Position numbers and translations under genes: made by a program
NCBI GenBank assembly: GCA_041660065.1
Contig: JBAZXC010000002.1
Span: forward strand, 170,620 to 234,619
DNA: 64,000 bases
DNA from: Parcubacteria group bacterium
Lineage (GTDB): Bacteria; Patescibacteriota; Minisyncoccia; Moranbacterales; GCA-2747515
Direction: 5' to 3'
Notes under the pieces: model-generated
Seen by the model: the letters and a program-made list of their open reading frames with translations, nothing else
The model's database searches: none
What the model was told of the DNA's origin: nothing
Part shown: one piece after another, positions 9,621 to 46,163 of the stretch
How the letters are laid out: every line of letters begins with the position of its first letter
How positions within the stretch are numbered: position 1 is the first letter of the stretch

Positions 9621-11300
9621 TCACCAGCTTCCGCCACCACCGCCGCCAAATCCGCCACCCGATCCGCCACCGCTAAACCCCGATCCGCCGGAGCCTGCCG
9701 ATGACGGTTGCGAAACCATCGTGGCATTATTTGCATCGCTAAACGCGTGCAAACTATGTGCAAAAAGGATCGGTGAAAATGTTGCATCACCGCTTTCATA
9801 CCACTGTGGCTTTGTTTTATAAATATCCTCAAATTGTTTTGCCCATGCTTCTTCCACGCCGAGCACCATTGCATATGGCAACAACTTTTCAAATCGTTCC
9901 AGATTTTTTTCCGGCGCATTATGAAAATTGATCCGATCTTTTTCTGCTGTTTCCATATACAATTTCAACCCCAAAACCTGCTCACGAACGATCGCACCAT
10001 TTTTTGTCCGTTGTGGCATCACGATGCCAAAACTCAAAATAATAACGGATGAAAGAAATGTCGCTATGCCATAAGCAAGACCTGCCATACTGCCGGCAAT
10101 AAATGAACCGACAATAAGAAATATGCCGATCGTCACATATGTTGCGCGCACTATTGATGGCGTTCCCGTATAGTATCCCTTCTGCATGATCGCACCTTCT
10201 ATGCTTTTTTTGATTGCAACGAGATCCTTATAGAATTTTTCTTTAAGGTCTGACATCCTGCGCGTTTGCGCACCGCCAAAAATCGCATCAAATAATAATT
10301 TGTCTTGCTCGCTCACATCTGCAGAGCTCTTTCCTGTCTGCGTAAATTCATAATCCTCCGAAGAAAATACTCCTTTTTTGTCGATCTTTTTGATCGTGAG
10401 ATGGCCATTCACCGCCAGCTGGATGATCGCCGCAGAGACGCTCTTTGGTGCAACGGCATCTTCTGCGATCATCCCAACTTCCGCTGCCGTCAGACCTTCC
10501 GGCGCCTCGTAATATGGCACGATCGTCCCTTTACCTTCCGGATCACGCCCTTTGGTGTACCACAATCGCCACATGACTATAAGCACAAAAACAGGTAATC
10601 CAAAGATCCAATTGTCCATAAGATATTTGACGATCTTTTGTTGCAATGTCGGCTTGTACACTGTTCCGGCCGGCATGCCGATCACGGTTGTCACACCGGA
10701 ACCTGACACAAGATTTTCTTGCGCAAATGTCACTGTACGATCATTATTAGTGATCATGTCATCGCATGCGACTGTTGACCCATACGGTCCAGCAAAGCAT
10801 GCTGTTTTGCTGATCTGTGGTGCATGCACCGTTACCTGCACAGCCTTCATCAGCGCCGACCATCGATCTCCCGTTGCATTCCAATACAACTCGTCGTGAT
10901 CGTCAAAATAATTGATCGCGCCTGTGACCGTGTATGTGATCACATAAGTGTTCATACCTGTCACAAACTTATCCGCATTCCCAATCTTGATCTGCAGATT
11001 ATCCCCATCTCGTGCTGTGACAAATGTGTAGGGAACACCATATTGATCTGCGACAGTAATATGATCAAGTGTGATCGTACGATTATCATTTGTCGCATTG
11101 GTATATTTCACAGGAACATCACGATAGATCCCATGTCGCTGTGTCGTGCCATAATCATATTGGATCGTTTCTGCCACATCCACCGTTGCATCAGCATTGA
11201 TCGTCATATCTACATCATATGTTTTGATCTCCTCCGCACGTACGCTGAATATCGGCGCCAAAAGAAGCAGTCCTCCGAAGAAAAAGAATATTTTTTTCAT
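9621..11300 (-). CDS. DUF2207-family secreted/membrane protein with C-terminal Gly-rich tail
   Basis: Signal peptide MKKIFFFFGGLLLLAPIFSVRA, large extracytoplasmic domain, TM segments, C-terminal GGSGFSGGGSGGGFGGGGGGSW typical of DUF2207; alternative start at 11345. Confidence 0.65.
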   Translation of the reverse strand: MKKIFFFFGGLLLLAPIFSVRAEEIKTYDVDMTINADATVDVAETIQYDYGTTQRHGIYRDVPVKYTNATNDNRTITLDHITVADQYGVPYTFVTARDGDNLQIKIGNADKFVTGMNTYVITYTVTGAINYFDDHDELYWNATGDRWSALMKAVQVTVHAPQISKTACFAGPYGSTVACDDMITNNDRTVTFAQENLVSGSGVTTVIGMPAGTVYKPTLQQKIVKYLMDNWIFGLPVFVLIVMWRLWYTKGRDPEGKGTIVPYYEAPEGLTAAEVGMIAEDAVAPKSVSAAIIQLAVNGHLTIKKIDKKGVFSSEDYEFTQTGKSSADVSEQDKLLFDAIFGGAQTRRMSDLKEKFYKDLVAIKKSIEGAIMQKGYYTGTPSIVRATYVTIGIFLIVGSFIAGSMAGLAYGIATFLSSVIILSFGIVMPQRTKNGAIVREQVLGLKLYMETAEKDRINFHNAPEKNLERFEKLLPYAMVLGVEEAWAKQFEDIYKTKPQWYESGDATFSPILFAHSLHAFSDANNATMVSQPSSAGSGGSGFSGGGSGGGFGGGGGGSW

Positions 11301-11344
11301 AATAATAAAAAATTTAACTTGTAACTTATTTAATATGACTGTCA

Positions 11345-11456
11345 TTTTTTCTTTTATATAAGCAATTACTGAAAGCCCACTTTTGTCATCCTGAATGTGT
11401 TTCAGGATCTCGCATATACGGCTTATATAGATGCTGAAACACGTTCAGCATGACAT
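11345..11456. repeat. ~115-bp intergenic repeat element copy 1 (two hairpins: TCCTGAA..TTCAGGA and ATGCTGAA..TTCAGCAT)
   Basis: Near-identical to 56149..56280 (second copy has a 22-nt insertion in hairpin 2 loop). Confidence 0.7.
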
Positions 11457-11564
11457 GGATATTAAATGAGTCTTTGTGTCTTTATTATACCACTATTCCC
11501 CATGTAAAGAATAAAGCCCCAATATTTTTTGTAAAATATTGGGGCTTTGGAATCAGTGATGGCA

Positions 11565-12017
11565 CTATTGCACCGTTCCGATGATCTTTTTGATCTCGGC
11601 AACGGTCTCTCCTGATCTATTCTGAATAATCGCAGAAAAAAAATACATGCCTCTTTTTGCCCCAAGTAATTTTACTGTGATGGCGAGCAAATCATGCGGT
11701 TTGACTTGTTTTTTATATCGGACACCGTCAACGCCCACAACCATTGGAGTTCCCGACAATTCAAAAAAATTCTTTGCCAATACTGCCGCAACCAGATTGG
11801 CACATTCGATCTGGCAATGACCTGGGAAAATAGGATTATCACGGAAATGTCCCATAAACCACGGATCATCCGAGCAAATGGTTTTAATTCCGACCATCTC
11901 ATGCGGTCTTTCCGTGTTGTAGGAAATACGATCAAGCATTTGCGCCGGCCCTGTATGCGGGATCATCTCCGCAATATCTCCTCTCTCAAGAAAAAAAGAT
12001 TTTTTTTCGTCTGCCAT
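11565..12017 (-). CDS. hotdog-fold dehydratase (FabZ/FabA-like)
   Basis: HFRDNPIFPGHCQIE...GVDGVRYKKQVKPHD pattern of FabZ hotdog domain. Confidence 0.6.
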   Translation of the reverse strand: MADEKKSFFLERGDIAEMIPHTGPAQMLDRISYNTERPHEMVGIKTICSDDPWFMGHFRDNPIFPGHCQIECANLVAAVLAKNFFELSGTPMVVGVDGVRYKKQVKPHDLLAITVKLLGAKRGMYFFSAIIQNRSGETVAEIKKIIGTVQ

Positions 12018-12127
12018 TTCATTCCCTCCATATTGAATGACGTGGATCGGTTTGACACAAAAATGATGCTGTCTTTATAAAATATGAATAAAAGGTACTA
12101 ATGGACCATTATACCACAAAAACCACC

Positions 12128-13375
12128 TTAATGCAAGTGTCGATCTTTGTCACGTGTTTTTTTGTGAAAAGAGATGGCAAATCGATGCGCTTCCTCACGC
12201 ATGCTTTCCAACAACTCTTTATCGGTAATGATCGCATGATTGACTGGAAAAAATGCACTTTTATAGACATCGACCTTTTTACGCGTTGGCCCTTTGGCAA
12301 CTGCGATCACGGGAATATTTATATCTAGTTTTTGCCATAGATCATCCGCCATGTTGAGATGTCCTTTTCCGCCGTCCAAAACAATCAGCTGCGGTATGCC
12401 CCAATCATCGAGATGATTGAGCCGTCGCGCCAGCACTTCTCGCATCGCGCCCACATCATCGATCCCCTGCACAGACTGCACTTTGAATTTACGGTACTGA
12501 CTTTTATCCGCCACTCCGTTTATAAATACGATCATCGACGCAACCATCGCTTCCCCGCCGATATGTGAAATATCATATGCTTCCACACGCATCTCATGTG
12601 CACTAAATCGCGTAAATGCAATGTCCTTTTTCATCAGCGCAATATCATTGATATGTGTGAGTGCAAAGATCTGCCGTTTCACTTTGTCCGCTTCTTCGAA
12701 TTTTTCTTTTTTTGCCAAAGCGCGCATCTGCTTTTCCAACTTTTCGAGAAGTGCTTTCTTATGCCCGGAGAGAAAAAGCGCGATGTTGCGCATATTGCGT
12801 TTGTAGTCCGCCTCAGAGATCGCGCCGTCATACGGTCCGGGACACAGTCCCATTTGATAATGCAGACACCCTTTTTCACTCTGCTCACTGCGATCATGAA
12901 ATGGAAATATTCGGCGAATGATCTTAAGCGCGATCTTCATCTGATCGCGCGATGTATACGGACCATAAATTTTTCCCTTACGATACATCGCATCCTGAAA
13001 CTGTTCCTTATCAAAATCCGTCTGTCGTACGATCACAACACGCGGAAACCGTTCTTTGGTAATGACAAAAAAAGAAAAACTTTTATCATCTTTTCCGTCA
13101 ATATTATATTTTGGCTTATGCGTGCGGATTAGTTCCGCTTCAAGGATGAGCGCTTCAAGTACGCTATCGGTTTGAATTGTTTCAATGTCTGTTGCTTGCG
13201 CTACCAATCGTTCGATCCGCTCACCGCGCGTATCATGACCGGAAAAATATTGTCGCACGCGATCACGCAATGACGTCGCCTTGCCCACATACAACACCTC
13301 TCGTTTTGCACCACGAAAAAAATACACGCCGGGTGCTTTTGGCAATTCCGTTATTTTTTTCGCGTTATTTTTCAT
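12128..13375 (-). CDS. uvrC: excinuclease ABC subunit C, short form lacking C-terminal HhH domain
   Basis: N-terminal GIY-YIG (PGVYFFRGAKREVLYVGKATSLRDRV), UvrC RNaseH-like endonuclease region (GIPQLIVLDGGKGHLN); 415 aa vs ~600 typical. Confidence 0.8.
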   Translation of the reverse strand: MKNNAKKITELPKAPGVYFFRGAKREVLYVGKATSLRDRVRQYFSGHDTRGERIERLVAQATDIETIQTDSVLEALILEAELIRTHKPKYNIDGKDDKSFSFFVITKERFPRVVIVRQTDFDKEQFQDAMYRKGKIYGPYTSRDQMKIALKIIRRIFPFHDRSEQSEKGCLHYQMGLCPGPYDGAISEADYKRNMRNIALFLSGHKKALLEKLEKQMRALAKKEKFEEADKVKRQIFALTHINDIALMKKDIAFTRFSAHEMRVEAYDISHIGGEAMVASMIVFINGVADKSQYRKFKVQSVQGIDDVGAMREVLARRLNHLDDWGIPQLIVLDGGKGHLNMADDLWQKLDINIPVIAVAKGPTRKKVDVYKSAFFPVNHAIITDKELLESMREEAHRFAISFHKKTRDKDRHLH

Positions 13376-31173: not shown

Positions 31174-31207
31174 GTAACATAATTATACGACCGTATAATT
31201 ATGTGAC
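31174..31207. repeat. 34-bp palindrome R1 GTAACATAATTATACGACCGTATAATTATGTGAC
   Basis: Member of 6-copy family; upstream of Cas4-like nuclease gene. Confidence 0.85.
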
Positions 31208-31301
31208 ACGGTATTGTTGCCTGTTGTATCAATTGATCAATTCTTTAAAAAATTGAGTTGTGTTTTGTCCCATATTTTTATAATTAAGTTATTTGCAAAG
31301 T

Positions 31302-31335
31302 GGTACATAATCGCACGGCCGTGGGATTATGTTAC
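31302..31335. repeat. 34-bp palindrome R2 with ~70-bp conserved left flank
   Basis: GGTACATAATCGCACGGCCGTGGGATTATGTTAC; flank shared with R5 and R6. Confidence 0.85.
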
Positions 31336-31398
31336 GGGGTTTTTAGCATTTGCAGTTTGGATAAATTGCAAAATATGTAATGGGATAGGAATGTAATG

Positions 31399-32007
31399 TT
31401 ATGCATCTTTACGATCCTTCCAAAATTTATGTTTTTTATTCTGCTCATTGACCAATTTTTTCAGCTTGTTCCAATTTTGTTTTTTATTTCCTTCATCCAT
31501 CATCTTATTGATATCTTTTCCGTTTAACCCGGCATACAATGCCGCGATCTCATAACGCACACCTTGATTATCATTTGGATTCATTTTTAGCAAAAGTCGA
31601 TATAATTCAATCGCCTTTTCATTATCTCCTTGATCCCAATAATCATCGCCCATGTATTGTATTGCACGCATGTACGCTCGATTATCCATGTCGCCCCACT
31701 CCATGGATTTCGGCCATTTTGGAAATTTTTTGACCGTTTTTCTAAAAGCGATTCTCGTCACTTCTTCACGCCTTTTGTCATCACCAAGCACGCCATACAC
31801 ACTGATCAAACCAATATACGTTTGCACATAATCATCATCCGCAATTAATGCAGATTGCAGTATTTTTAACGCTTTCTTTGCACCTCTCTTACCTTCATCC
31901 AAGAGATCCATTGCATCATAATAATTATTATTAAGTTCTTCATAATCTATATTTTTGTTGTTCATATATAGTTTATAAATTATTATCATTTTTCCAACTA
32001 CACCCAT
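31399..32007 (-). CDS. TPR-repeat protein
   Basis: Tetratricopeptide-like repeats (AYMRAIQYMGDDYWDQGDNEKAIELYRLLLKMNP). Confidence 0.55.
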   Translation of the reverse strand: MGVVGKMIIIYKLYMNNKNIDYEELNNNYYDAMDLLDEGKRGAKKALKILQSALIADDDYVQTYIGLISVYGVLGDDKRREEVTRIAFRKTVKKFPKWPKSMEWGDMDNRAYMRAIQYMGDDYWDQGDNEKAIELYRLLLKMNPNDNQGVRYEIAALYAGLNGKDINKMMDEGNKKQNWNKLKKLVNEQNKKHKFWKDRKDA

Positions 32008-32033
32008 AGTTAGAAAAACCCACTTTTAAAAAT

Positions 32034-32067
32034 GTAACATAATTATACGGCCGTATGATTATGTGAC
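32034..32067. repeat. 34-bp palindrome R3 (overlaps stop codon of PaaX-like gene, upstream of TPR gene)
   Basis: GTAACATAATTATACGGCCGTATGATTATGTGAC. Confidence 0.85.
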
Positions 32068-32625
32068 TTTTCTTTTAAAGAAATGTTTTTTAAGTTCTGA
32101 TGCATTATCGATGGTTGATGCTGTAATTATACGCACATATTTATCTGCATTGTATAGACGAACGAGATCCAATATCGTTTTTTCGCACGGATATGGTGAT
32201 ACAAAGACGCTTTGTTGCAATTGTTTGAATTCCAACACATAAAGATGTTTGCGCAAAATATCACGAAAGACACGATCATCCTCCGGTATATCAAAGATCA
32301 CAATGCGCCACTTCTTATCCCATTTTTTAGGTTTGACAAATGTTGCAATCGATCCAAATAAGTCCAACTGGTGCGCAATCCTTTTTCCTTGCGCAGTCAA
32401 AACCAGCATAAAAGATCCATCTGGCATCTTGCGTTCTTTGATAAGCTTTTCTTGTGAAAGTCGTTTGAGCGATCGCGCAAAACTGCGACGATTAATTTTT
32501 TGCCAATCTTTGTGCATAACGGAAAGCGTAGCAAAATACTGACCTGGGGAATGGGATAATCCCAGTGCGACACCGCCAAACAACAAAACGAGAATCTTTT
32601 TTTGTAACTTCCCTATTTTATACAT
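32059..32625 (-). CDS. PaaX-family transcriptional regulator-like protein (Cas2-like C-terminal domain)
   Basis: WRIVIFDIPE...LRKHLYVLEFKQLQQSVFVS motif of PaaX_C/Cas2-like fold; palindrome R4 begins 13 nt upstream of start codon. Confidence 0.6.
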   Translation of the reverse strand: MYKIGKLQKKILVLLFGGVALGLSHSPGQYFATLSVMHKDWQKINRRSFARSLKRLSQEKLIKERKMPDGSFMLVLTAQGKRIAHQLDLFGSIATFVKPKKWDKKWRIVIFDIPEDDRVFRDILRKHLYVLEFKQLQQSVFVSPYPCEKTILDLVRLYNADKYVRIITASTIDNASELKKHFFKRKVT

Positions 32626-32637
32626 AGCGCACTAATG

Positions 32638-32671
32638 GTAACATAATCCCACGGCCGTGGGAATATGTTAC
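32638..32671. repeat. 34-bp palindrome R4, candidate autoregulatory operator
   Basis: GTAACATAATCCCACGGCCGTGGGAATATGTTAC, perfect 34-bp palindrome. Confidence 0.85.
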
Positions 32672-32851
32672 TTTTTTACACGTTTGAAATTTGGAGAATT
32701 GTGGTGTATTTCATCCTATATTTTTGCATTGATCATTTATCCCGATAATTTTAACGCAATGAAAGATACCAAACCACATCTATCATTTATTCTTTCAAAA
32801 ATTGAATTGTTTTTTGCCCCGTGTTTTATTTTTTAATGACTTTAGCTATGT

Positions 32852-32885
32852 GGTACATAATTATACGGCCGTGGGAATATGTGAC
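32852..32885. repeat. 34-bp palindrome R5 with conserved left flank
   Basis: GGTACATAATTATACGGCCGTGGGAATATGTGAC. Confidence 0.85.
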
Positions 32886-32979: not shown

Positions 32980-34158
32980 TTATTTTTTAGGTTTTAATAA
33001 CAATAGTAATTCTTCTGATTTCACTCGTGATGCTTTGATTTTATTATTTTTTAGTTTATTGTTTCCTCCTAGAGTACTAAATTTACCAACAATGACATCA
33101 TGAGAATGTTGTCTACTGGACTTATCAATGTCAAAATATTTTCTTGATATCTCCTTAACTAGTTCACCAGAAAGTCCATTGCTACATTTTCCTTTTGGAA
33201 ACGTGAAAATTACTGACACTTTTTTTTGTGCAAGCACACATAAAAGATCATTAAGTGCTTTTTTTGACTGACTTAAATTACTAAAATGTGACTGTGGTCT
33301 CTCCGTAATGTCTGGGTAGCGTCCTACGCCGGATACTGGTCCACATGTGCCTCGTGCGATTGTTTCTAATACGTGATAAAACCTACTATAATGCACACCG
33401 GAATATGGCGGATCAATAAAGACAAGATCGCCCTCTTTAACTTTTGTTTTGATAAAATGGATTGCATCATCCACATATGTCTTTCCTTTTACTTTTGCGT
33501 GTTTTTCAGAAATTTCCTTAAGGGTAGTCTTGCATACATGTATGATATCTCTATGCCATGCGTCATAGAGAAACTTTCCAGCAGTTTCTGTTGGTTGAAA
33601 AGGTTGAGCTGTGTGCCCCGGAGCTGCTATCGTTCGACTTACAGCATCAATAAGCGCTGCAAGACATGCTGTTTTTTCTGTACTGTTTTTTGGTAAATAT
33701 TTTATAAGATAATCAATCGTCAACGCTTGTAATGGACTGAAATAGTGACCGCCATATGCATTCCAGATTGGACCAATACTTGATTTTTTTTCACATAGTT
33801 TTCGTGATTTTTGAACTGTTTTTCTAAGTACACTGATTTTACAATCCTGCAACTTCACTGCTTCATTAAAAAATGTGGAGGATTTTATCTTTGCATTTGC
33901 TTCTTCAATCCATTTATTTTCCAGTGACACAGGATTTAACTTTTTGTCTCGCTCAATAATAGAACCAGACAAAATCTTACCATACATTTGCAAATCAGAA
34001 GCTAAAACAGGCACATTGAAACTTTGTGCAACATGATGCACAACCGATCCAGCACCACAAAAAGGATCCACAAATCTTTTTGCAGTTGGCACGGTTTTTT
34101 TTATTAGTTCACCCAATCCATTATTTAGCATGAACCGCTTTGAGCCCATGTATTTCAT
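32980..34158 (-). CDS. D12-class N6-adenine DNA methyltransferase (Dam-like) with ~100-aa C-terminal extension
   Basis: DPFCGAGS (motif I) and VFIDPPYSG (motif IV, DPPY). Confidence 0.75.
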   Translation of the reverse strand: MKYMGSKRFMLNNGLGELIKKTVPTAKRFVDPFCGAGSVVHHVAQSFNVPVLASDLQMYGKILSGSIIERDKKLNPVSLENKWIEEANAKIKSSTFFNEAVKLQDCKISVLRKTVQKSRKLCEKKSSIGPIWNAYGGHYFSPLQALTIDYLIKYLPKNSTEKTACLAALIDAVSRTIAAPGHTAQPFQPTETAGKFLYDAWHRDIIHVCKTTLKEISEKHAKVKGKTYVDDAIHFIKTKVKEGDLVFIDPPYSGVHYSRFYHVLETIARGTCGPVSGVGRYPDITERPQSHFSNLSQSKKALNDLLCVLAQKKVSVIFTFPKGKCSNGLSGELVKEISRKYFDIDKSSRQHSHDVIVGKFSTLGGNNKLKNNKIKASRVKSEELLLLLKPKK

Positions 34159-34177
34159 ATTTTTGTTTTTTAACTTC

Positions 34178-35335
34178 CTATAGTCCAGATTTTTCTTTCA
34201 GTTCCCTGTACAGAGCTGATGGACCAGTGCCACCCGGAGCATATCTGTCCCTATTAAAATCATCATCTTGCAAATCTATCCGATTAAATATTTCCAAAAA
34301 CTCCTCCTTTGTGACAATATCGCCAACTTTATCAAAACTGAGATAGGCATCTTTTAAAAATCGCATCAAGGCAATAAACCCCGTTGATTTGTTTAATATC
34401 ATATTTTGTTGAACATCGTTCCATGCAGTTGGCCACTTTTGTTGCACTGCAAAAAAATAATTCCACAATATTTGAGCAATATTTGCATCTTCTTCTTCAA
34501 TAAACATATTTCTCAAAAAAAGTTTTTTTTCATCATCACCATTAACTTTATTTGGTATTGAATCTCTTTTATAAATATCCCTATCTTTCATTGCACAAAT
34601 ATTATTTCCTGAGATATACCGAATCAACGAATCAACAAATGTTGCTTGGGTTATTGTCTCAAATCTATCCGTAGCTACACCAAGGATTTTAATTTTACCA
34701 AAAAATGGACTACCCTCCTTCTGATCTAGTGCTCTAGCAATATTATGAGCAGTTTTTTGTGGACTTCTAGTTTTTGTATACTCAAATAAATCTGCAACAA
34801 GTGATTTATTTACCTTTGTGTGGCTTTTATTTATTGTAGCAAAGATAATTGCTTGGTCTTCAATATCCATATCAACAAATATCGTCACATTTAGAGTGAA
34901 ATCTTCATTGTTCAAATCAAGTCCACCCTCTCTCAAACCAGCTAGTCTATGTTGACCATCTAGTATTTTTGCTACATTATTATTTCTGCGAATCATTAAC
35001 TTTCCACTACTTTCATCATAATTAATGTTGCAAATTGCAGAATCGCCAACATTTTCAAACTGACTAATTTCTACAATGATACCAGTTGGAAATGTTGCAT
35101 CTACAAGCTGAACATAGCTCGCTATTTCCTTCACTCTATTTTTTGATAATAATCTTTGAATTCCAATATATTTTTCTAGTTCAGTCGAGTTTGTTTCCAA
35201 ATGTCTTATATCTGCATAAGATATTTCCAGTAAATCTTTATAACCAATTGATGCAACATAAAAAACTCCAACGGGTTGTTTCACCTGAATGCAACTAACT
35301 TCAATATAATTTTCATTATTATTTAAAGTATTCAT
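34178..35335 (-). CDS. DGQHR-domain protein (DndB-like, ParB/Srx fold)
   Basis: Literal DGQHRLAGL motif; adjacent to MTase and R-M genes. Confidence 0.7.
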   Translation of the reverse strand: MNTLNNNENYIEVSCIQVKQPVGVFYVASIGYKDLLEISYADIRHLETNSTELEKYIGIQRLLSKNRVKEIASYVQLVDATFPTGIIVEISQFENVGDSAICNINYDESSGKLMIRRNNNVAKILDGQHRLAGLREGGLDLNNEDFTLNVTIFVDMDIEDQAIIFATINKSHTKVNKSLVADLFEYTKTRSPQKTAHNIARALDQKEGSPFFGKIKILGVATDRFETITQATFVDSLIRYISGNNICAMKDRDIYKRDSIPNKVNGDDEKKLFLRNMFIEEEDANIAQILWNYFFAVQQKWPTAWNDVQQNMILNKSTGFIALMRFLKDAYLSFDKVGDIVTKEEFLEIFNRIDLQDDDFNRDRYAPGGTGPSALYRELKEKSGL

Positions 35336-35850
35336 GATAATTGATTCATAATATCTCTTTGACTCTCCTTATTTTCTTGATCAGGATCAAGATTTTGGGA
35401 TTGACGATAGTGTGCATAATATATCGTACCAAGAGCATAAAGAACAAATATCCCCGATATTAATCCTATATATTGTGTTTTAGTTGGAACAACTGTAGTG
35501 GCCATATAGCCTACAGCAGAAAATATAATTACAACCCAGGAAATCATATATAAGATTTCTGACAAATTTACTGGTTTTTTTGAATAACCTCTCATCATGT
35601 GAATAGCAGAGCCTAATAATGCTGCGCTATATATAAAAAATTCTCCATTTTTCCAGAGTTGATTTATGCTAAAATTATCATCGGTTATGAGTACGTAAAA
35701 AAAAGTGAGCCAAATTGGTAAAAATGAAAAAAATATTGTTACAAAAATGAAAAACACCGACTCCTTATGATCGTCCCAAGCCTGTGTTTCTTTAATTATC
35801 TTAAATATATTCATAATAATTAATTTGCTATTGTAGCATTCAATATTCAA
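35332..35850 (-). CDS. small integral membrane protein (4 TM)
   Basis: ORF, hydrophobic helices; inside defense gene cluster. Confidence 0.4.
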   Translation of the reverse strand: MNIECYNSKLIIMNIFKIIKETQAWDDHKESVFFIFVTIFFSFLPIWLTFFYVLITDDNFSINQLWKNGEFFIYSAALLGSAIHMMRGYSKKPVNLSEILYMISWVVIIFSAVGYMATTVVPTKTQYIGLISGIFVLYALGTIYYAHYRQSQNLDPDQENKESQRDIMNQLS

Positions 35851-35877
35851 ATATGCAAATGACGATTAATATTCACT

Positions 35878-38355
35878 TTATTCACTCCACAATTTAGCGA
35901 TCACATCTTTTGTTTTTTGTTCGTATATGTCGATGAGTTTTTTTGCTGATTCAACCAAAACACGTTCTGCTTCAATTTTTTCTACAATTAGTTTTTGATT
36001 TATTTTTGATGGCAAAGAAATTTTGATGGATCTAATAATTGGCATATTCAAACCACCTCTTTGATTTTCTCCGTTAATGTTTCTTATTTCTTGATATTTT
36101 TCTTTCAAAGAATATAATAAAAATTCTGAGATCAATTTATTTTCATCTGGATTTATAGAAACCAACGATTGATTACAAGCAGCTTCAGTTCTAAGAATGG
36201 CAATGGTCCCACGTGTCTTTCCTTGACCATTCAATGCTATCAAAACAGAGTTTTTTGGCAATAATCTAGCATTTGAATTATCTAATCCAAGCTGTGTAAT
36301 CCTACCTTCACAATCATAAATTTCCCCTCTATGGATATCACCAGAAACAAGCCACTTAATATCCCCATTATAATATTCTTTAATTGTGGATCGTGGAGTG
36401 CCTCCTGTCATGAGCGTAGAAACATCTCCAATCTTTACCTTTTTCCACTCTGGGTCAATTTCAATTTTTGGCTTCCAATTTTCTGTGATTTGTTTTGCGC
36501 CGGTGATGATTTTTTGATAGCCATCCAATTCTGCTACGATTTTTTCTTGGATTTCGAGAGGTGGAAGTGGAATTTTTGTTGATTTTAATTTTCCAAAATG
36601 TCTTTTGTACCCGTCAGATTCTATTGGATTTACTATTAAATAATAATACAAAAATTTTGGAAGCAATTTGTCATTTGTCTGCAAAATTTTAATACCATCT
36701 GCACCTTGAATAAAATTATTTTCAATATATTTAATTGCGCAGGTATGATCACCAAAAACAATCACTGGGTTTTGTACTGATATTATGGCATCTACATCAT
36801 CGCTCCAACCAGATATATTATCTTGAGATTGATCAATGACAGGATATCGACCATCACTTTTTATATCTTCTTTTTTTAATTTTTTTGGTGGAACAATCGT
36901 AAGTATTAAGTCTTCAATTTTTATCATTGGCCATTTTACATTTGTATAATCTACAGATTCAAAATAGCGATCGCCACTCAAATTATAATCTCCACTCTCC
37001 ACAATTTTAGATTTTTTAACGGCTGTTGCTATAGATTCCGGATCAAGTCCGGAATGACATGATGAAGGCATCGTTTGATTTTCTTTCCATGCATTTAAAA
37101 TTTCCACTGCACATGACAAATCATTTTTATCACTTGGTCTGCGCTGTGCGCCGAGATCAAAACCATCATTGGCGATTTTGACAAAAAGAATTTCGTCATT
37201 CGTTTCCTTTTTGGTCTTGTCAAAAAAGAGGATTGACGTCTTCACACCTGCATACGGATTAAAAACGCCACTCGGCAAACTTACCACAGCCCAAAGCCCT
37301 GCATCTTCTACAAGCTTCTCACGAATCGCTTTATGCGCACGAGCTGCCTGAAAAATCACGCCCTCTGGTACAATCACGCCACATCGCCCACGATCAGTCA
37401 GATGACGAATCATATAATTGAGAAAAAGCACTTCAGTCGCTCCTGTGTCCATCTGCAATTCTTCTGCCACTGCCGCACGATCGATCTTGCCCGCGAATGG
37501 TGGATTTGCCAATATGATATCCCATTTTGTCGTTTCCCCTTGCGTATCCACAAGTGAATTGCGTCGCTTAATCGTCGCATGTGGCAATTTATGAAAGTAT
37601 AAATTCATGAGACCGAATTTGATCATATCCGGATCACTGTCAAACCCCGTGAATGCTTGATTTTCCAAAAATTTCTGTTGTTTTCCTGTGAGGATATCCA
37701 TCGGAAATTTTCCCGCTTTTTTAAAATCATCAGTTGTGTACTTCTGTTTCAAATGATCCAATGCCGCAACAAGAAATCCGCCCGTACCACAGGCCGGATC
37801 ACAAATACTTTCTTCTGCCTTTGGATCGATGACGTCTACAATAAATTTGATAATATGTCTTGGTGTGCGGAACTGTCCTCCTGTGCCCGCTGATGCGATA
37901 CTGGAAAGCAAATATTCATAAAGATCGCCAAAAAGATCCGATCGTGTTGTTTTTTCTTCAGATTCTAGATCTGCCATCAATTCTTCGATTTTATGCACGA
38001 CTGTACGCAGTGCCGGTCTGGCAAAAAGTTTCACATGTGCTTTGTTGTAAAGCATCTTCACTGTTGGATTCGTTGTTTTTTCTGCAATTTTTTCAAAGGC
38101 ATCTCCCAAGTGTCCGAAAAGAGCATCTGCATTGAGACTGAGAATATTATCCCACTGATAAATTGCCAGCTCCCCACTTAAAACCGGTTTATATTTTTTG
38201 TCCAACAGTTTTTGCTCTTGATCATGCTTGTGTAGTTCGCGTAAAAAAATAATATAAATCATGAGTTCAATCACCGCCGTATGATTGGTAAGACCGCCAG
38301 CCCAAATGACATCCATAATGCTATTGATCTTGCTACGAAATTCTTGTAATGACAT
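35878..38355 (-). CDS. hsdMS: Type I R-M methyltransferase fused to specificity subunit (HsdM-HsdS single polypeptide, two TRDs)
   Basis: HsdM N-domain, motif I DPACGTGGF, motif IV LANPPFAG; C-terminal half has two target-recognition domains each ending in conserved LPPLEIQEKIVAELD / LPSKINQKLIVEKIE. Confidence 0.85.
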   Translation of the reverse strand: MSLQEFRSKINSIMDVIWAGGLTNHTAVIELMIYIIFLRELHKHDQEQKLLDKKYKPVLSGELAIYQWDNILSLNADALFGHLGDAFEKIAEKTTNPTVKMLYNKAHVKLFARPALRTVVHKIEELMADLESEEKTTRSDLFGDLYEYLLSSIASAGTGGQFRTPRHIIKFIVDVIDPKAEESICDPACGTGGFLVAALDHLKQKYTTDDFKKAGKFPMDILTGKQQKFLENQAFTGFDSDPDMIKFGLMNLYFHKLPHATIKRRNSLVDTQGETTKWDIILANPPFAGKIDRAAVAEELQMDTGATEVLFLNYMIRHLTDRGRCGVIVPEGVIFQAARAHKAIREKLVEDAGLWAVVSLPSGVFNPYAGVKTSILFFDKTKKETNDEILFVKIANDGFDLGAQRRPSDKNDLSCAVEILNAWKENQTMPSSCHSGLDPESIATAVKKSKIVESGDYNLSGDRYFESVDYTNVKWPMIKIEDLILTIVPPKKLKKEDIKSDGRYPVIDQSQDNISGWSDDVDAIISVQNPVIVFGDHTCAIKYIENNFIQGADGIKILQTNDKLLPKFLYYYLIVNPIESDGYKRHFGKLKSTKIPLPPLEIQEKIVAELDGYQKIITGAKQITENWKPKIEIDPEWKKVKIGDVSTLMTGGTPRSTIKEYYNGDIKWLVSGDIHRGEIYDCEGRITQLGLDNSNARLLPKNSVLIALNGQGKTRGTIAILRTEAACNQSLVSINPDENKLISEFLLYSLKEKYQEIRNINGENQRGGLNMPIIRSIKISLPSKINQKLIVEKIEAERVLVESAKKLIDIYEQKTKDVIAKLWSE

Positions 38356-38358
38356 TTT

Positions 38359-40779
38359 TTATATTTTTAATATTTTACTTGTGGCAATATCTTCCGCCAT
38401 TTCGATCAGTTCTTCCTCTTTAAATCGTTCTAACCATTCACCCGGTCTATACACGTTAAATGGTGGCTCTGATAAAAATGACACATTTCTCTCCTGTGCA
38501 GATCGCACCACTTTCTCACGCAATTCATCGTTGGTCGTCATCTTGGCAAAAATCAGTCGTGACATCAATGTGCGCTCTTGATCCGCACCTGGCTCTATAC
38601 CGTATTTTTGTACCATATCCTCCATCCATTGATCTCTCTGCGAATCACGCGTTGGAAGCTCTTCCTTGCCCAGTGCACTGAGTACAAAATTACGAATGGA
38701 TACAATTACACCAAAACCTTCTTGCAATTTATCTTCTGAAAAATATTCTTTTGGTTTGTTAAATACGTGTTCATCCAAAAATAGACTCAACTCTGCCTCA
38801 CGCTCTTCATCTTCTGCCATCTTGAGAACTTCCCCATTTTCTGCGACAATTTCTTGAATTGCTTTGGTCCATGCGGATTGATACATGTTTTTGTCCACTG
38901 CATCACCATCGGGACCAACCGTCATTTTATCCCTGGTAAGCACAGCATCATCATCGTTGCTCACAATTGGTGTAAATGGCGACGGCGTTTCAGTTCCACC
39001 ATCGCCAATAACTCCCTCACCTCTGCCACCTGTCACCGTAGCCCCCTTTAATATTAATGGGGTTTTGAGTGGCGCTTCCCAATCATATTTTTCTTCAAAG
39101 TATTCCACAACACCGCAAAAATCAAAAATCGTAAAAAACTCTTTTTTAAAATCTTTACCATCATGGTGAAACGTGTACAAACGTGTGCCGCGTCCCTTAA
39201 TTTGCTGATATGAGGTTGTTTCAAAAATCGGTCGTGCAAGTACGATATTGAGAACTTCCGGACAGTCAAAACCTGTGGTGAGCATATCTACTGATACCGC
39301 AACACGCATACGTTGATTTTCTGGATCCTTGAATTCTTTGGCGATTTGTTGTGCATTCATCACACTACTCGTAATTGTTTTGGCAAATTGTCCACCATAT
39401 GCCGGCATCATCTCATTGAGAATTTTTTCCAACTTCAGTGCATGCCGCTGTGATACCGCAAAAATAATCGACTTGCCAATTTCTCCATCAGGTGCTTTAT
39501 TGGCATTATCGAGAAATTCCTGCATCATCGTGCGGTTCGTTTTTTCCAAATAGACCTTCTTTTCCAAATCTCGAATTGTAAAGGATTCGCCCTTTGCCTC
39601 GGATACTTCCAAACCCTCTGGACTAAGTGCCTTTTGCGTAAGCACCGTGTTCATTTTGTGAAATCGTGGACCGACAAGAAATGGCCCCTGTGAATCGCCA
39701 ATGCCATCTTGAATAGTATAACGATATGTTGCCACACCATCCGCACATCCAAAAAACTTATATGTATCTCTCTGAAGACGTTTTTCAAATGCACGCGGAT
39801 CATCTATTTGTAATTGTGATTCATCAATATTTTTGAGAAAGTCTTTCGGTGTGGCAGTGAGACCAACTTTTGTCGCTCCGTAAAAACGATCTGTTGCAGC
39901 ACGTGCTTGTGCAGAATATATACTGCGGTGTGCCTCATCATGAATAATTAAATCAAAATACCCCGGTGAAAAATAATCTTCGCCATTCTTAATCATGCTT
40001 TGAATTGTTGCCACCACAACATTTGCGCCAACAATATTATTGCGTGCACTTCCCCAAAATGTGGCAATGGATGATAAATCACCTAAAATTGGTTCGAATG
40101 CCCCCTTGGTTTGTGTAGCAAGTGTAATACGGTCTACAAGAAAGAGAACATTTTGCGCCTGGTGTGTTTCTAAAAATTTGCGAATAAGCGCAGCCGCAAG
40201 TCCAGTCTTACCCGTCCCCGTTGCCATCTCCAAAAGAAATGCTCTTTTGCCGGCATCATATCCTTCGGCAATTGTATTGATTGCTTCTACTTGATAATGG
40301 CGCAATGAAAAATTACTCGGATCAACTCTTTGTAAATAGTCTGGTGTGATCGGATTGCGCGTAAGTGGCACTACATTACCCATCGTATCAGCATTTCTTT
40401 TGCGCTCAAGATCCCGTTGTGTATAAAATTCATTTACTTGAATCGCATCTCCTTTGGTAATATCCCAAAAATAAATAACGTGATCATTTGCCAAATAAAT
40501 ATATTGGATTTTTCCTTTATACTGAGCATCCACATAATTTAACGCCTGTTGTTTGGCGCTATACGGATCAATTTCTGGTGCCTTTGCTTCAATAAGCGCT
40601 AATGGTTGTCCAGATGAGTTTTTCAAAATATAATCCGATCGTCCTGCAACGCCATGATCTTCAAAAATAACTTGTTGAAAACTTTCAATATCCCATTTGG
40701 CATCCCGCAATTTTCTATCAATAACAACACGTGAAAAAGCTTCACTCATAGATATAACATCATAATATAACTCTTTCAT
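38359..40779 (-). CDS. hsdR: Type I restriction enzyme R subunit
   Basis: N-terminal PD-(D/E)XK (DYIL...EAK), helicase motif I ATGTGKT, motif II DEAH; start set at MKELYY. Confidence 0.85.
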   Translation of the reverse strand: MKELYYDVISMSEAFSRVVIDRKLRDAKWDIESFQQVIFEDHGVAGRSDYILKNSSGQPLALIEAKAPEIDPYSAKQQALNYVDAQYKGKIQYIYLANDHVIYFWDITKGDAIQVNEFYTQRDLERKRNADTMGNVVPLTRNPITPDYLQRVDPSNFSLRHYQVEAINTIAEGYDAGKRAFLLEMATGTGKTGLAAALIRKFLETHQAQNVLFLVDRITLATQTKGAFEPILGDLSSIATFWGSARNNIVGANVVVATIQSMIKNGEDYFSPGYFDLIIHDEAHRSIYSAQARAATDRFYGATKVGLTATPKDFLKNIDESQLQIDDPRAFEKRLQRDTYKFFGCADGVATYRYTIQDGIGDSQGPFLVGPRFHKMNTVLTQKALSPEGLEVSEAKGESFTIRDLEKKVYLEKTNRTMMQEFLDNANKAPDGEIGKSIIFAVSQRHALKLEKILNEMMPAYGGQFAKTITSSVMNAQQIAKEFKDPENQRMRVAVSVDMLTTGFDCPEVLNIVLARPIFETTSYQQIKGRGTRLYTFHHDGKDFKKEFFTIFDFCGVVEYFEEKYDWEAPLKTPLILKGATVTGGRGEGVIGDGGTETPSPFTPIVSNDDDAVLTRDKMTVGPDGDAVDKNMYQSAWTKAIQEIVAENGEVLKMAEDEEREAELSLFLDEHVFNKPKEYFSEDKLQEGFGVIVSIRNFVLSALGKEELPTRDSQRDQWMEDMVQKYGIEPGADQERTLMSRLIFAKMTTNDELREKVVRSAQERNVSFLSEPPFNVYRPGEWLERFKEEELIEMAEDIATSKILKI

Positions 40780-40887
40780 TCTACCCCCTATCCCACCAAA
40801 AATCAAAAAAATGGCTTTTTTATGGTGTTTTTTTTGGTGTTGCTATTTATTTCATTTTATCATGATGCTCTTTTGATAACATATACC

Positions 40888-40985
40888 AGATTGCTACACC
40901 CAACTCAAAGAGGGCTCGCAATGACAATGGGAGATTGCTACACCCACTCAAGGAGAACTCGCGATTGGCGATGGGAGATCACTTA
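40888..40985. repeat. 44-bp tandem repeat, 2.2 copies (AGATTGCTACACCCAACTCAAAGAGGGCTCGCAATGACAATGGG)
   Basis: Read from sequence upstream of hsdR. Confidence 0.6.
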
Positions 40986-41128: not shown

Positions 41129-41284
41129 ATGGCTGGACACGGAACCAACAAAACAGGCAACAAAAAAAGCAATGGACGGCGAGCCGGAATCAAGACAAAA
41201 GGTCGTGCCAAACAAATGCCACCCACAATCGCTGCCAAAAGAGAGCAGGAGAAGCGTGAAAGAAGCAGAAATAACCGCTATTAG
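41129..41284 (+). CDS. 51-aa lysine/arginine-rich small protein (module copy 1)
   Basis: MAGHGTNKTGNKKSNGRRAGIKTKGRAKQMPPTIAAKREQEKRERSRNNRY; SD GAGGAGG; paralog at 45332..45487 with >90% DNA identity over first 80 nt. Confidence 0.45.
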   Translation: MAGHGTNKTGNKKSNGRRAGIKTKGRAKQMPPTIAAKREQEKRERSRNNRY

Positions 41285-41311
41285 TCGTTAAAACGACCAA
41301 CAACTCCCCAT

Positions 41312-43558: not shown

Positions 43559-44545
43559 TCATTTTCCATTCAATAATAACAATATCAGTCCGATCATGCG
43601 ATCTTTGTCGCGTGGTTTTGATTCTGCCACAAGCAGTGTGATCGTGGTAAGTGATTCCGGCGTGATCTTTTTTTGGAAATCAATACCCGTTTTGTGCAAA
43701 AACCACACAAATGCAAATGCGCCCGTACGCTTATTGCCATCGTTAAACGGGTGATTTTTCACGACAAAATATAGTAGATGTGCAGCTTTTTCTTCAATAC
43801 TCGGATACATATCAGCGCCAAACGCTGATTGCAAAACGTTACCCAATATACCTTCAAGATTTTTTTCTTGTTTTTCTTGTGCAAACAGATCCGATGCTTG
43901 TTTTTTGGCAATCAAATCTTTCTTTAAATCACCTACAGCACTGTACAAATCACTCGCACGCAGTGATACATCTTTTTTTGTTACACCCTTGTGTGGCAAC
44001 CGATCTTCATCATAGGCTTCCAATGAAAACCATGTACCGGCAAATGTTTTGATCAGTTCCAAAATATCATCTGTTTTGATCGTATGATCTTTTGGTAGCA
44101 GCTTTTGTACGTGTTCTACCGCTGTGAGAAAATTGTCATAATTTTTGCCAATCCGTTGCGGATTGATGAGATATCCTTTTGTGATATATTGTCCGAGAAT
44201 TTTATTAGCCCAACGTCTAAACTCAATTGCGCGAACAGAATTTGTTCTATATCCAACCGCTAAAATAATATCCAAGTTATAGAAATTCACTGTCCTAGTT
44301 TGCATTTTCCCCTCTATCGCTCCGTGTTTTGTGGTATGTGCAAAATTTGCACATACCACTTTCTGATCAAGTTCTTTATCAGAAAAGATGTTTTTAATAT
44401 GTTTGACAATCACAGTTCTATCAACATCAAAAATCTCGGCAATTTGTTTTTGTGTTGCCCAAATTGTTTCATTATCAAAATCCTCACGAAGTTCTATTGC
44501 TCCGTTTTTTGCTTGATAAATTGCCAATTGTTTCTTGTTTGCCAT
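43559..44545 (-). CDS. RhuM-family N-domain fused to Fic/Doc domain protein
   Basis: Fic motif HPFNDGNKRTG; N-terminal ~130 aa resemble virulence protein RhuM family. Confidence 0.75.
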   Translation of the reverse strand: MANKKQLAIYQAKNGAIELREDFDNETIWATQKQIAEIFDVDRTVIVKHIKNIFSDKELDQKVVCANFAHTTKHGAIEGKMQTRTVNFYNLDIILAVGYRTNSVRAIEFRRWANKILGQYITKGYLINPQRIGKNYDNFLTAVEHVQKLLPKDHTIKTDDILELIKTFAGTWFSLEAYDEDRLPHKGVTKKDVSLRASDLYSAVGDLKKDLIAKKQASDLFAQEKQEKNLEGILGNVLQSAFGADMYPSIEEKAAHLLYFVVKNHPFNDGNKRTGAFAFVWFLHKTGIDFQKKITPESLTTITLLVAESKPRDKDRMIGLILLLLNGK

Positions 44546-46129: not shown

Positions 46130-46163
46130 GTAACATAATTATACGGCCGTGGGATTATGTTAC
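46130..46163. repeat. 34-bp palindrome R6 with conserved left flank, 240 nt upstream of AAA-CYTH gene
   Basis: GTAACATAATTATACGGCCGTGGGATTATGTTAC. Confidence 0.85.

Follow-up and report, generated by a model that had tools for sequence, protein, structure and literature searches.

What do a DNA methylase, a DGQHR-domain protein and a small membrane protein do together, directly downstream of a Type I restriction-modification (R-M) system? The question is raised by five co-directional minus-strand genes in a 64,000-nucleotide stretch from the metagenome-assembled genome of a Parcubacteria group bacterium, a member of the candidate phyla radiation (contig JBAZXC010000002.1, positions 170,620 to 234,619), the whole of which is called the window below. 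The genes encode a restriction subunit (HsdR), a fused modification and specificity subunit (HsdMS), a small membrane protein, a DGQHR-domain protein and a D12-class methylase. Open reading frame (ORF) calling on the window returned them with exactly the positions and sizes given in a first-pass annotation of the same sequence, which had described a defence island made of a Type I system and a separate two-gene DGQHR-methylase module. The best explanation of the locus is that the operon joins two self-contained DNA-modification systems, the Type I R-M system and a portable three-gene module (hereafter the trio). The trio probably represents DNA surveillance of a new kind that is linked to methylation.

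The conserved trio and its interchangeable methylase

The gene neighbourhood was compared in 85 loci, of which 80 were genomic loci with relatives of the DGQHR protein (39–59% identity) and 5 came from look-ups; ORFs in them were called mechanically, and the locus counts are approximate. In 84 of the 85 loci, an iterated profile placed a homologue of the small membrane protein immediately before the DGQHR gene, with gaps of about 0–12 nt or overlaps. The small membrane protein is the obligate upstream partner of the DGQHR gene. The module is a separate, modification-linked unit, as first described, with three genes instead of two. It is mobile: the pair of membrane protein and DGQHR protein spans at least 10 phyla, plasmids and viral contigs, and the full trio was found on 12 IMG/VR viral contigs. 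No gene family beyond the trio recurs in more than 7 of the loci.

The hydropathy scan of the small protein showed three strong segments and one weaker one, a qualified match to the four transmembrane (TM) helices first assigned to it. Its homologues have few conserved residues and evolve fast, and they keep 3–4 hydrophobic segments. All 50 representative clusters are stand-alone proteins of 113–202 aa, and fusions were not seen among them.

The DGQHR protein scored 203.5 bits against TIGR03187 (cutoff 58.85) and 64 bits against PF14072 (cutoff 29.1), so the first-pass domain assignment stands. Its invariant residues are Q60 and R61, D126–R130 (the DGQHR motif), and F165 and N169 of the FxxxN motif (165–169), and the residues of the nucleoside triphosphate (NTP) site are conserved. 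The N-terminal domain has a ParB/sulfiredoxin (Srx) fold of the NTPase type; among the ParB/Srx NTPases that it matches are the sensor domains of BrxU, SspE and DndI. The C-terminal domain (approximately residues 186–385) is all-helical and confidently modelled, and neither a known fold nor a nuclease motif was recognised in it. When the PDB sequences were searched with a profile of the DGQHR alignment, there was no match, and Foldseek against the PDB returned weak ParB matches only. The homologues are 40–68% identical across at least 10 phyla, including Patescibacteria, Bacteroidota, Chloroflexota, Acidobacteriota, Pseudomonadota, Verrucomicrobiota, Nitrospirota, Desulfobacterota and Cloacimonadota.

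Named relatives of the DGQHR protein fit it in part. Against TIGR04172, residues 14–382 aligned to profile positions 2–379 of 381 (E 5e-58), with 197 bits against a cutoff of 450, and the gene lies beside a methylase, not beside dnd genes. The score was 25.6 bits for DndB (TIGR03233, cutoff 328) and 74.9 bits for DpdB (NF041060, cutoff 300; 76 bits for DpdB in PADLOC). Neither dnd genes nor dpdA, dpdC or a TGT-like gene was found among the genes at 28–47.5 kb of the window. A partition ParB (ParABS) was considered and rejected, with only the ParB/Srx core fold in common: Pfam and NCBIfam scans of the protein gave no ParB-family or helix-turn-helix (HTH) match, ParA is absent among the same neighbours, and the contig is chromosomal.

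The third gene of the trio varies in kind. In 73 of the 85 loci the pair has a D12 methylase nearby, immediately upstream and co-directional in 56 of them and downstream in approximately 9. In most loci this methylase belongs to the Dam/DpnM family (2DPM, E 2e-47; TIGR00571, 222–258 bits, cutoff 115). The D12 family of the window's methylase partners the pair in the window and in three other loci (L063, L092 and L146). An N6_N4 methylase is the alternative partner in L049 and L073. In the Verrucomicrobiota locus L084, the partner is a set of DndC, DndD, a DndE-HerA fusion and DndA, and L083 of the same phylum has a partner set with the matching DndE-ATPase fusion. A neighbour-joining tree of the DGQHR proteins showed that the partner type switches several times, which fits a reader/effector core able to use any mark.

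Some loci also carry a nuclease. The pair is placed inside a DpnM-DpnII-pair-N6_N4 methylase cassette in L054 and L066. On the 15-kb Acinetobacter plasmid pTR3_1, the pair comes after genes for an endonuclease of the BglII/BstYI family, for an HTH regulator and for a D12 methylase of 392 aa, and on pRiA4 of Rhizobium rhizogenes the pair lies near an MT-A70 methylase and a BglII-family enzyme. Plasmid loci of the module also adjoin toxin-antitoxin and R-M genes. In 5 trio loci, a protein of approximately 766 aa is inserted between the methylase and the small gene. It unites a DGQHR domain with a Card1/CARF-associated PD-(D/E)xK nuclease and an HEPN domain like that of Swt1, and it is possibly an added effector.

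Two further arrangements were seen beside the pair. The dnd operon of L084 is without a canonical dndB and has the pair at its end, and DndE is fused to a HerA/FtsK-like ATPase in both L083 and L084. In the Patescibacteria loci L003 and L081, the genes after the trio encode RadC, a MutH-domain protein of 470 aa, a C5 methylase and Vsr, an arrangement that we take to resemble a Sau3AI-type GATC system. Because of this layout and of the DpnII and BglII/BstYI-family neighbours elsewhere, there are hints that GATC-centred sites are the usual target of the trio loci. The median observed/expected (O/E) ratio of GATC in other trio loci, compared without a control set, is 0.89, a mild deficit that becomes strong only where DpnII is present.

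The window's own methylase is predicted to be a D12-class N6-adenine DNA methyltransferase. It scored 58.5 bits against PF02086 (cutoff 22) and has an S-adenosylmethionine (AdoMet) motif of the FxGxG type (DPFCGAGS, 31–38) and the invariant catalytic DPPY (D249–Y252). The first-pass label "Dam-like D12 methylase" is right as to the class and too narrow as to the family, since the score against TIGR00571 was 39.4 bits (cutoff 114.85) over the N-terminal 56 residues only. The same annotation had proposed an extra C-terminal tail of about 100 aa. In hhalign, residues 211–386 fell on positions 157–278 of 283 of DpnM-like enzymes, and the conserved end FSTLGGNN...SRVKSEELLLL is a normal Dam-type C-terminus, so there is no such tail. 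The extra ~110 residues are internal, in region ~60–210 and in an insert after DPPY, and they are common to the whole family (3362 homologues detected, 377–426 aa, conserved over the full length).

This family has its own habitual context. In 45 of 80 metagenomic loci, the methylase is the last gene of a second operon, after a DGQHR-domain protein of ~500 aa and then a soluble protein of ~430–450 aa for which no family match was found (L132–L211, for example L132 585–4626, and also L093 and L094). In most of the other metagenomic loci, the flanks are short or the upstream ORF is DGQHR-like but weaker. The window's layout was found in only 1 of the 80 (L146). Twelve of the top methylase matches are on contigs equal in length to those of the closest DGQHR homologues, and the order small gene, DGQHR gene, methylase gene was verified in one of them, L092. 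The window-type D12 family is habitually linked to DGQHR-domain proteins, and the window is a minority hybrid that combines the membrane-protein/DGQHR core of the DpnM-type trio with the methylase of a second DGQHR system. Like the trio, this second system has no model in PADLOC v2.0.0 or NCBIfam. The result defines a dedicated D12 methylase family of 380–410 aa that travels with DGQHR proteins.

Operon layout, the Type I genes and flanking sequences

The features of the locus are listed in Table 1. In the order from hsdR to the methylase gene, the intergenic spacing is 3, 27–63, −4 and 19 nt, and the negative value is a 4-nt overlap shared by the stop of the small-protein gene and the start of the DGQHR gene. 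The five genes probably form a single operon because the gaps and overlaps are so tight. The true start of hsdR is probably the ATG at 40779. The small-protein gene can be read as a longer ORF of 172 aa from a TTG (35332–35850), and the public gene call (P0361) starts at the ATG at 35814.

Table 1. Coordinates of the genes and repeats of the locus (window positions) and of the ~766-aa protein inserted in other trio loci (positions in those loci).
Feature	Position	Strand	Description
hsdR	38359–40806	−	815 aa from TTG; ResIII, helicase and HSDR_N domains; motifs in the text
hsdMS	35878–38355	−	825 aa; HsdM and complete HsdS in a single polypeptide
Small membrane protein gene	35332–35814	−	160 aa from ATG; 3–4 predicted TM helices
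DGQHR-domain protein gene	34178–35335	−	385 aa; TIGR03187, PF14072
D12-class N6-adenine DNA methyltransferase gene (predicted)	32980–34158	−	392 aa; MethyltransfD12 58.5 bits
44-bp tandem repeat	40888–40979	none	2.1 copies, 83% matches
28-bp palindrome, copy nearest the methylase gene	32855–32882	none	98 nt downstream of the methylase stop
~766-aa insert protein, L001	5091–7385		domain matches
~766-aa insert protein, L009	6965–9265		domain matches
~766-aa insert protein, L011	278–2584		domain matches

The genes hsdR and hsdMS make up an intact Type I R-M system, whose activity is predicted from its motifs. The first-pass identification of HsdR was borne out by matches to ResIII (128 bits), HSDR_N and the helicase domain, and by 237 bits for REase_I in PADLOC. 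Against the EcoAI/FtnUII family (NF046051) it scored 248.5 bits and did not reach the equivalog cutoff of 550. HsdR has a PD-(D/E)xK motif (D58...E73-x-K75) and the helicase motifs GTGKT (197–201), DEAH (290) and QxxGRGxR (544–552). HsdMS has an N6_Mtase domain at 139–468 (196 bits) and two Methylase_S domains. Its residues 7–470 match the full-length MTase_I profile of PADLOC (386 bits), with motif I (DPACGTGGF) at 186 and motif IV (NPPF) at 284, and residues 473–806 match positions 13–350 of 375 of Specificity_I (166 bits). The target-recognition domains (TRDs) lie at ~473–620 and ~636–795, and both are intact, so the single polypeptide with two complete TRDs described at first does not have a degenerate HsdS half. 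A nuclease/helicase HsdR, an N6-adenine methylase and a two-TRD specificity component, all three parts of a Type I system, are thus present, with M and S in one 825-aa ORF instead of two separate subunits.

The fusion of M and S is not an assembly artefact, because an independent Logan assembly reads through the M/S junction in frame, with HsdMS residues 433–825 at 100% identity. A frameshift or assembly error as the source of the fusion was also rejected in view of at least 120 fused homologues. The best 120 HsdMS homologues are mostly 796–880 aa long (8 shorter, 1 longer), and 119 of them have both N6_Mtase and Methylase_S. In all three other, unrelated contigs that were compared (from Shapirobacteria, a 1.35-Mb metagenome contig and a Deltaproteobacteria metagenome-assembled genome, MAG), hsdMS follows hsdR, directly in two and with one gene between in the third, and none of the three has the trio. 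Fused HsdMS is a common architecture, and the window protein is a new member of a populated subfamily with at least 120 members among the matches listed. The first-pass view that M-S fusions are uncommon does not apply to this subfamily and is valid only relative to the textbook three-gene systems. The literature searched on HsdMS and M-S fusions did not describe the fusion, and "HsdMS" there meant two separate genes. Fused HsdMS is documented here as a standard two-gene layout, common in bacteria of the candidate phyla radiation (CPR). It is the lesser part of the finding and, because the architecture is common, not its main interest.

From established Type I biology and the intact motifs, HsdMS is expected to methylate a bipartite target, and HsdMS together with the EcoAI-like HsdR would translocate and cut unmethylated DNA.

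The Logan contig (L131) ends inside hsdMS at ~37060 (residue 433), just upstream of the M/S junction, and this end coincides with a G+C fall from 0.42 to 0.30. The break may reflect population variation, for example alternative specificity halves breaking the assembly graph. Along the window, G+C drops from ~0.42 to 0.30–0.36 between 37 and 31 kb, and the low-G+C region lies wholly within the outermost copies of a 28-bp palindrome.

The palindrome cluster (31177–32882) and the 44-bp tandem repeat that were said to bound the island are both real. The palindrome is ACATAAT-N3-ACGGCCGT-N3-ATTATGT, and its six copies are at 31177–31204, 31305–31332, 32037–32064, 32641–32668, 32855–32882 and 46133–46160; its arms have 14 matches in the window against 0.4 expected by chance. 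The copies flank a TPR gene (31399–32007) and a PaaX-like regulator gene (32059–32625). The palindromes could serve the PaaX-like protein as operators, act as terminators or mark the boundaries of a cassette. The copy nearest the methylase gene may be a terminator or an operator, and its membership in the module is only putative. The tandem repeat sits in the 320-bp region upstream of hsdR, where the operon promoter is expected. A promoter and terminator scan of 32.5–41.5 kb gave a result no better than shuffled sequence. In the window, an Rfam scan found no RNA families, with none matching the tandem repeat, and ARAGORN found no tRNA.

Side observations were made on the composition and neighbours of the locus. 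Across the 64-kb window, GGCC is strongly avoided (44 observed, 110 expected, O/E 0.40, z −6.3), and GATC is the most over-represented 4-bp palindrome (606 observed, 451 expected, O/E 1.34, z +7.3). GGCC is present inside each copy of the 28-bp palindrome. The avoidance of GGCC and the enrichment of GATC suggest that restriction of the HaeIII type exerted pressure in the past and that GATC has some functional use. A protein with RhuM-family and Fic/DOC domains is encoded at 43559–44545 (−), 2.7 kb upstream of hsdR; genes of the RhuM/Fic type are often embedded within Type I R-M loci. A 51-codon ORF at 41130–41285 (+) encodes a very basic peptide (MAGHGTNKTGNKKSNGRRAGIKTKGRAKQ...) and is followed by a hairpin at 41277–41304.

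Proposed function of the trio and rival explanations

DNA modification is used to tell self and non-self apart by restriction enzymes, BREX, DISARM, Dnd/Ssp and Dpd. The trio extends a known theme, because DGQHR proteins beside DNA-modification genes are known from Dnd, Dpd and TIGR04172. It has a recognisable "mark" gene, and its other two genes are without a predicted nuclease. We propose that the trio has a defence or surveillance role that is R-M-like and gated by modification, and we regard the chances of this role as evenly balanced. The individual steps below are held with less confidence than the role itself.

The D12 methylase would mark the host's own DNA with N6-methyladenine (m6A). 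The DGQHR protein would be an NTP switch with a ParB/Srx fold that loads on DNA. By analogy with SspE and DndI, the cognate modification would make it hydrolyse NTP and release, and unmodified incoming DNA would keep it engaged. The co-translated membrane partner would either tether the DGQHR protein at the envelope, where foreign DNA enters, or be the activated effector, possibly acting by membrane damage and abortive infection. DndB-like proteins bind ATP/GTP (10.1101/2025.10.10.680097). One study presents DndI and SspE as modification-sensing NTPases; there, DndI is reported to let go of phosphorothioate-marked self DNA once the mark stimulates its ATPase, and to restrict unmarked phage DNA (PMC11662687). 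DndB is discussed as a possible ParB-type effector in another paper, in whose available part a system of the window's type is not covered (PMC10853773).

In a more specific form of this proposal, the pair is a portable, nuclease-free reader-effector cassette that can be plugged into any DNA-marking enzyme, namely three methylase families or Dnd phosphorothioation, and that, through a ParB-like NTP switch, turns the absence of the mark on incoming DNA into a membrane-coupled immune response. This form is tentative, and we think it possible and rather doubtful. If true, immunity based on DNA modification would gain a new class that differs from restriction endonucleases. If the trio is defensive, it would be a widespread system with a ParB-fold NTP switch and a membrane protein in the place of the endonuclease, and a function would be assigned to the large DGQHR family outside Dnd and Dpd. 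The cultured carriers Echinicola vietnamensis, Flavobacterium anhuiense, Tenacibaculum adriaticum, Rhizobium rhizogenes (pRiA4) and Acinetobacter (plasmid) make the question directly testable. The trio lies at 9912–12901 of pTR3_1 and at about 1.624–1.629 Mb of the Echinicola sequence CP003346.

The trio was not described in the literature searched on DGQHR/DndB-like proteins, DndI, and ParB-like anti-phage proteins with methylases. In PADLOC-DB v2.0.0, the Type I genes matched REase_I, MTase_I and Specificity_I, and the trio fitted no modelled system: it gave only generic MTase_II and weak DpdB/DndB matches, with none for the membrane protein. No model for the trio as a system was found in Pfam or NCBIfam.

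Several observations weigh against a defence or surveillance role. Neither a nuclease nor any other domain of an effector could be recognised in the DGQHR protein, and the small membrane protein had no match in Pfam, PADLOC or NCBIfam and no recognisable effector domain. Approximately 5–8 loci with adequate flanks have no nearby methylase. A true restriction enzyme and a C-protein are already present in some loci, so the pair is not simply a "missing" restriction enzyme. With a GATC O/E of 1.34, the window gives no avoidance signal. The genes flanking the trio (111 sampled) are mostly housekeeping genes, with no clear defence-island enrichment. DndB, the relative that has been characterised, represses transcription and is not a restriction factor (PMC4507180). 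Island context was dropped as support for a defence role, as the flanking proteins are mostly of the housekeeping kind. The defence island of the first-pass annotation is plausible and unproven: elsewhere the trio lies mostly among housekeeping genes and not normally beside Type I genes.

The main rival explanation casts the DGQHR protein as an NTP-modulated repressor of the DndB kind. It would tune the expression of the neighbouring methylase, then an epigenetic or orphan enzyme, and the module would be regulatory and not defensive. This explanation has a direct experimental precedent, since the founding DGQHR protein DndB represses dndBCDE and DndC, DndD and DndE are up 9- to 19-fold in a dndB mutant (PMC4507180). 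The pair of L083 and L084, in dnd operons without a canonical dndB, would suit such a role, as would the absence of a recognisable nuclease from most trios. A repressor leaves the obligate co-translated membrane partner (84 of 85 loci) unexplained, however, and neither an HTH nor another DNA-binding fold was found in the DGQHR protein, whose similarity to DndB is minimal (26 bits, cutoff 328). Plasmid pTR3_1 already has a C-protein-like HTH regulator between its R and M genes, and for a regulator, with operators expected to vary by host, 40–68% identity across phyla is unusual. We consider the repressor explanation unlikely.

The tight packing and probable co-transcription of the five genes could also mean one integrated system, with the trio as accessory Type I subunits, for example a second methylation layer or a restriction-alleviation controller. 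Similar associations exist: in L094, hsdR-hsdM-hsdS is followed after 35 nt by genes for a DndB-like protein, an unknown protein and a window-type methylase, and a Type I system lies nearby in L077. A Type I locus of Campylobacter was reported to contain a ParB-like COG1479 protein, in a paper that equates COG1479 with DUF262/the DGQHR domain (PMC3632139). A relative of the window's Type I genes was detectable in only 1 of the 80 genomic DGQHR loci, though, the families that recur in the flanks include no Type I domains, and hsdR-hsdMS occurs without the trio in the three other contexts. An integrated five-gene system is quite improbable.

The ATPase of DpdB is said to help DpdA insert preQ0. 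The DGQHR NTPase might likewise assist the modification enzyme on DNA, and the module would then be a modification machine only. The matches to the DpdB models of PADLOC (76 bits) and NCBIfam (75 bits) and the constant linkage of the DGQHR protein to modification genes of several chemistries are consistent with such a helper. Dam/DpnM-type methylases work alone, however, the scores are far below the DpdB cutoff of 300, the neighbours at 28–47.5 kb include neither dpdA nor dpdC, and the membrane partner is again unexplained. A helper function is very improbable on these grounds.

The least probable explanation is that the pair, tethered to the membrane, serves mobile elements in a ParB-like way for maintenance, partition or addiction, with the methylase as their anti-restriction gene. 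The ParB/Srx fold and the occurrence on plasmids and prophage-sized viral contigs speak for it, and against it stand the missing ParA partner and ParB HTH/dimerisation domains and the mostly chromosomal loci with housekeeping flanks, the window contig being 307 kb long.

Comparison with known systems

The Type I genes are closest in kind to the EcoAI/FtnUII-like (family IB) systems. They share the nuclease and superfamily 2 (SF2) helicase motifs of HsdR, the catalytic motifs of HsdM, two TRDs whose spacer helices are conserved, and tight gene linkage. They differ in that M and S are in one polypeptide and in the HsdR score (248 against 550 bits). This two-gene hsdR-hsdMS layout recurs in other CPR bacteria and in the Deltaproteobacteria MAG.

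For the trio, the DpnII system (DpnM, DpnA, DpnII) is comparable in that the commonest trio form uses a DpnM-like methylase and that L054 and L066 carry the pair inside a DpnM-DpnII-...-N6_N4 cassette. The window methylase, in contrast, is from another D12 family, and a DpnII-type endonuclease is absent from the window. Kiwa consists of the membrane protein KwaA and the DNA-binding protein KwaB, and a methylase is not part of it. It resembles the pair in architecture alone: in both, a small multi-TM protein is encoded together with a soluble partner that acts on DNA. The window proteins have no Kwa match in PADLOC and no sequence relationship to Kiwa.

In SspE, DndI, GmrSD and BrxU, a DUF262/DGQQR ParB-like NTPase is fused to an HNH or DUF1524 nuclease in the same chain, whereas the window DGQHR protein has a helical domain instead of the nuclease and a separate membrane protein. 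DndB and DpdB have the same DGQHR domain with QR, DGQHR and FxxxN and likewise lie beside DNA-modification genes. The window protein scores below their cutoffs (26 against 328 and 75 against 300), their descriptions, unlike the window, do not mention a membrane partner, and DndB is a repressor (PMC4507180).

TIGR04172 ("DNA phosphorothioation-associated DGQHR protein 1") differs from the window protein in score (197, below 450) and in partner, which is an m6A methylase in the window in place of dnd genes. The two align over the full length, and in a TIGR04172 member on a Ruegeria plasmid a membrane protein of ~180 aa precedes the DGQHR protein, as in the window. The Ruegeria member adjoins a restriction enzyme of the phosphorothioation system and a DndD-like ATPase, and it sits in a modification-dependent restriction locus.

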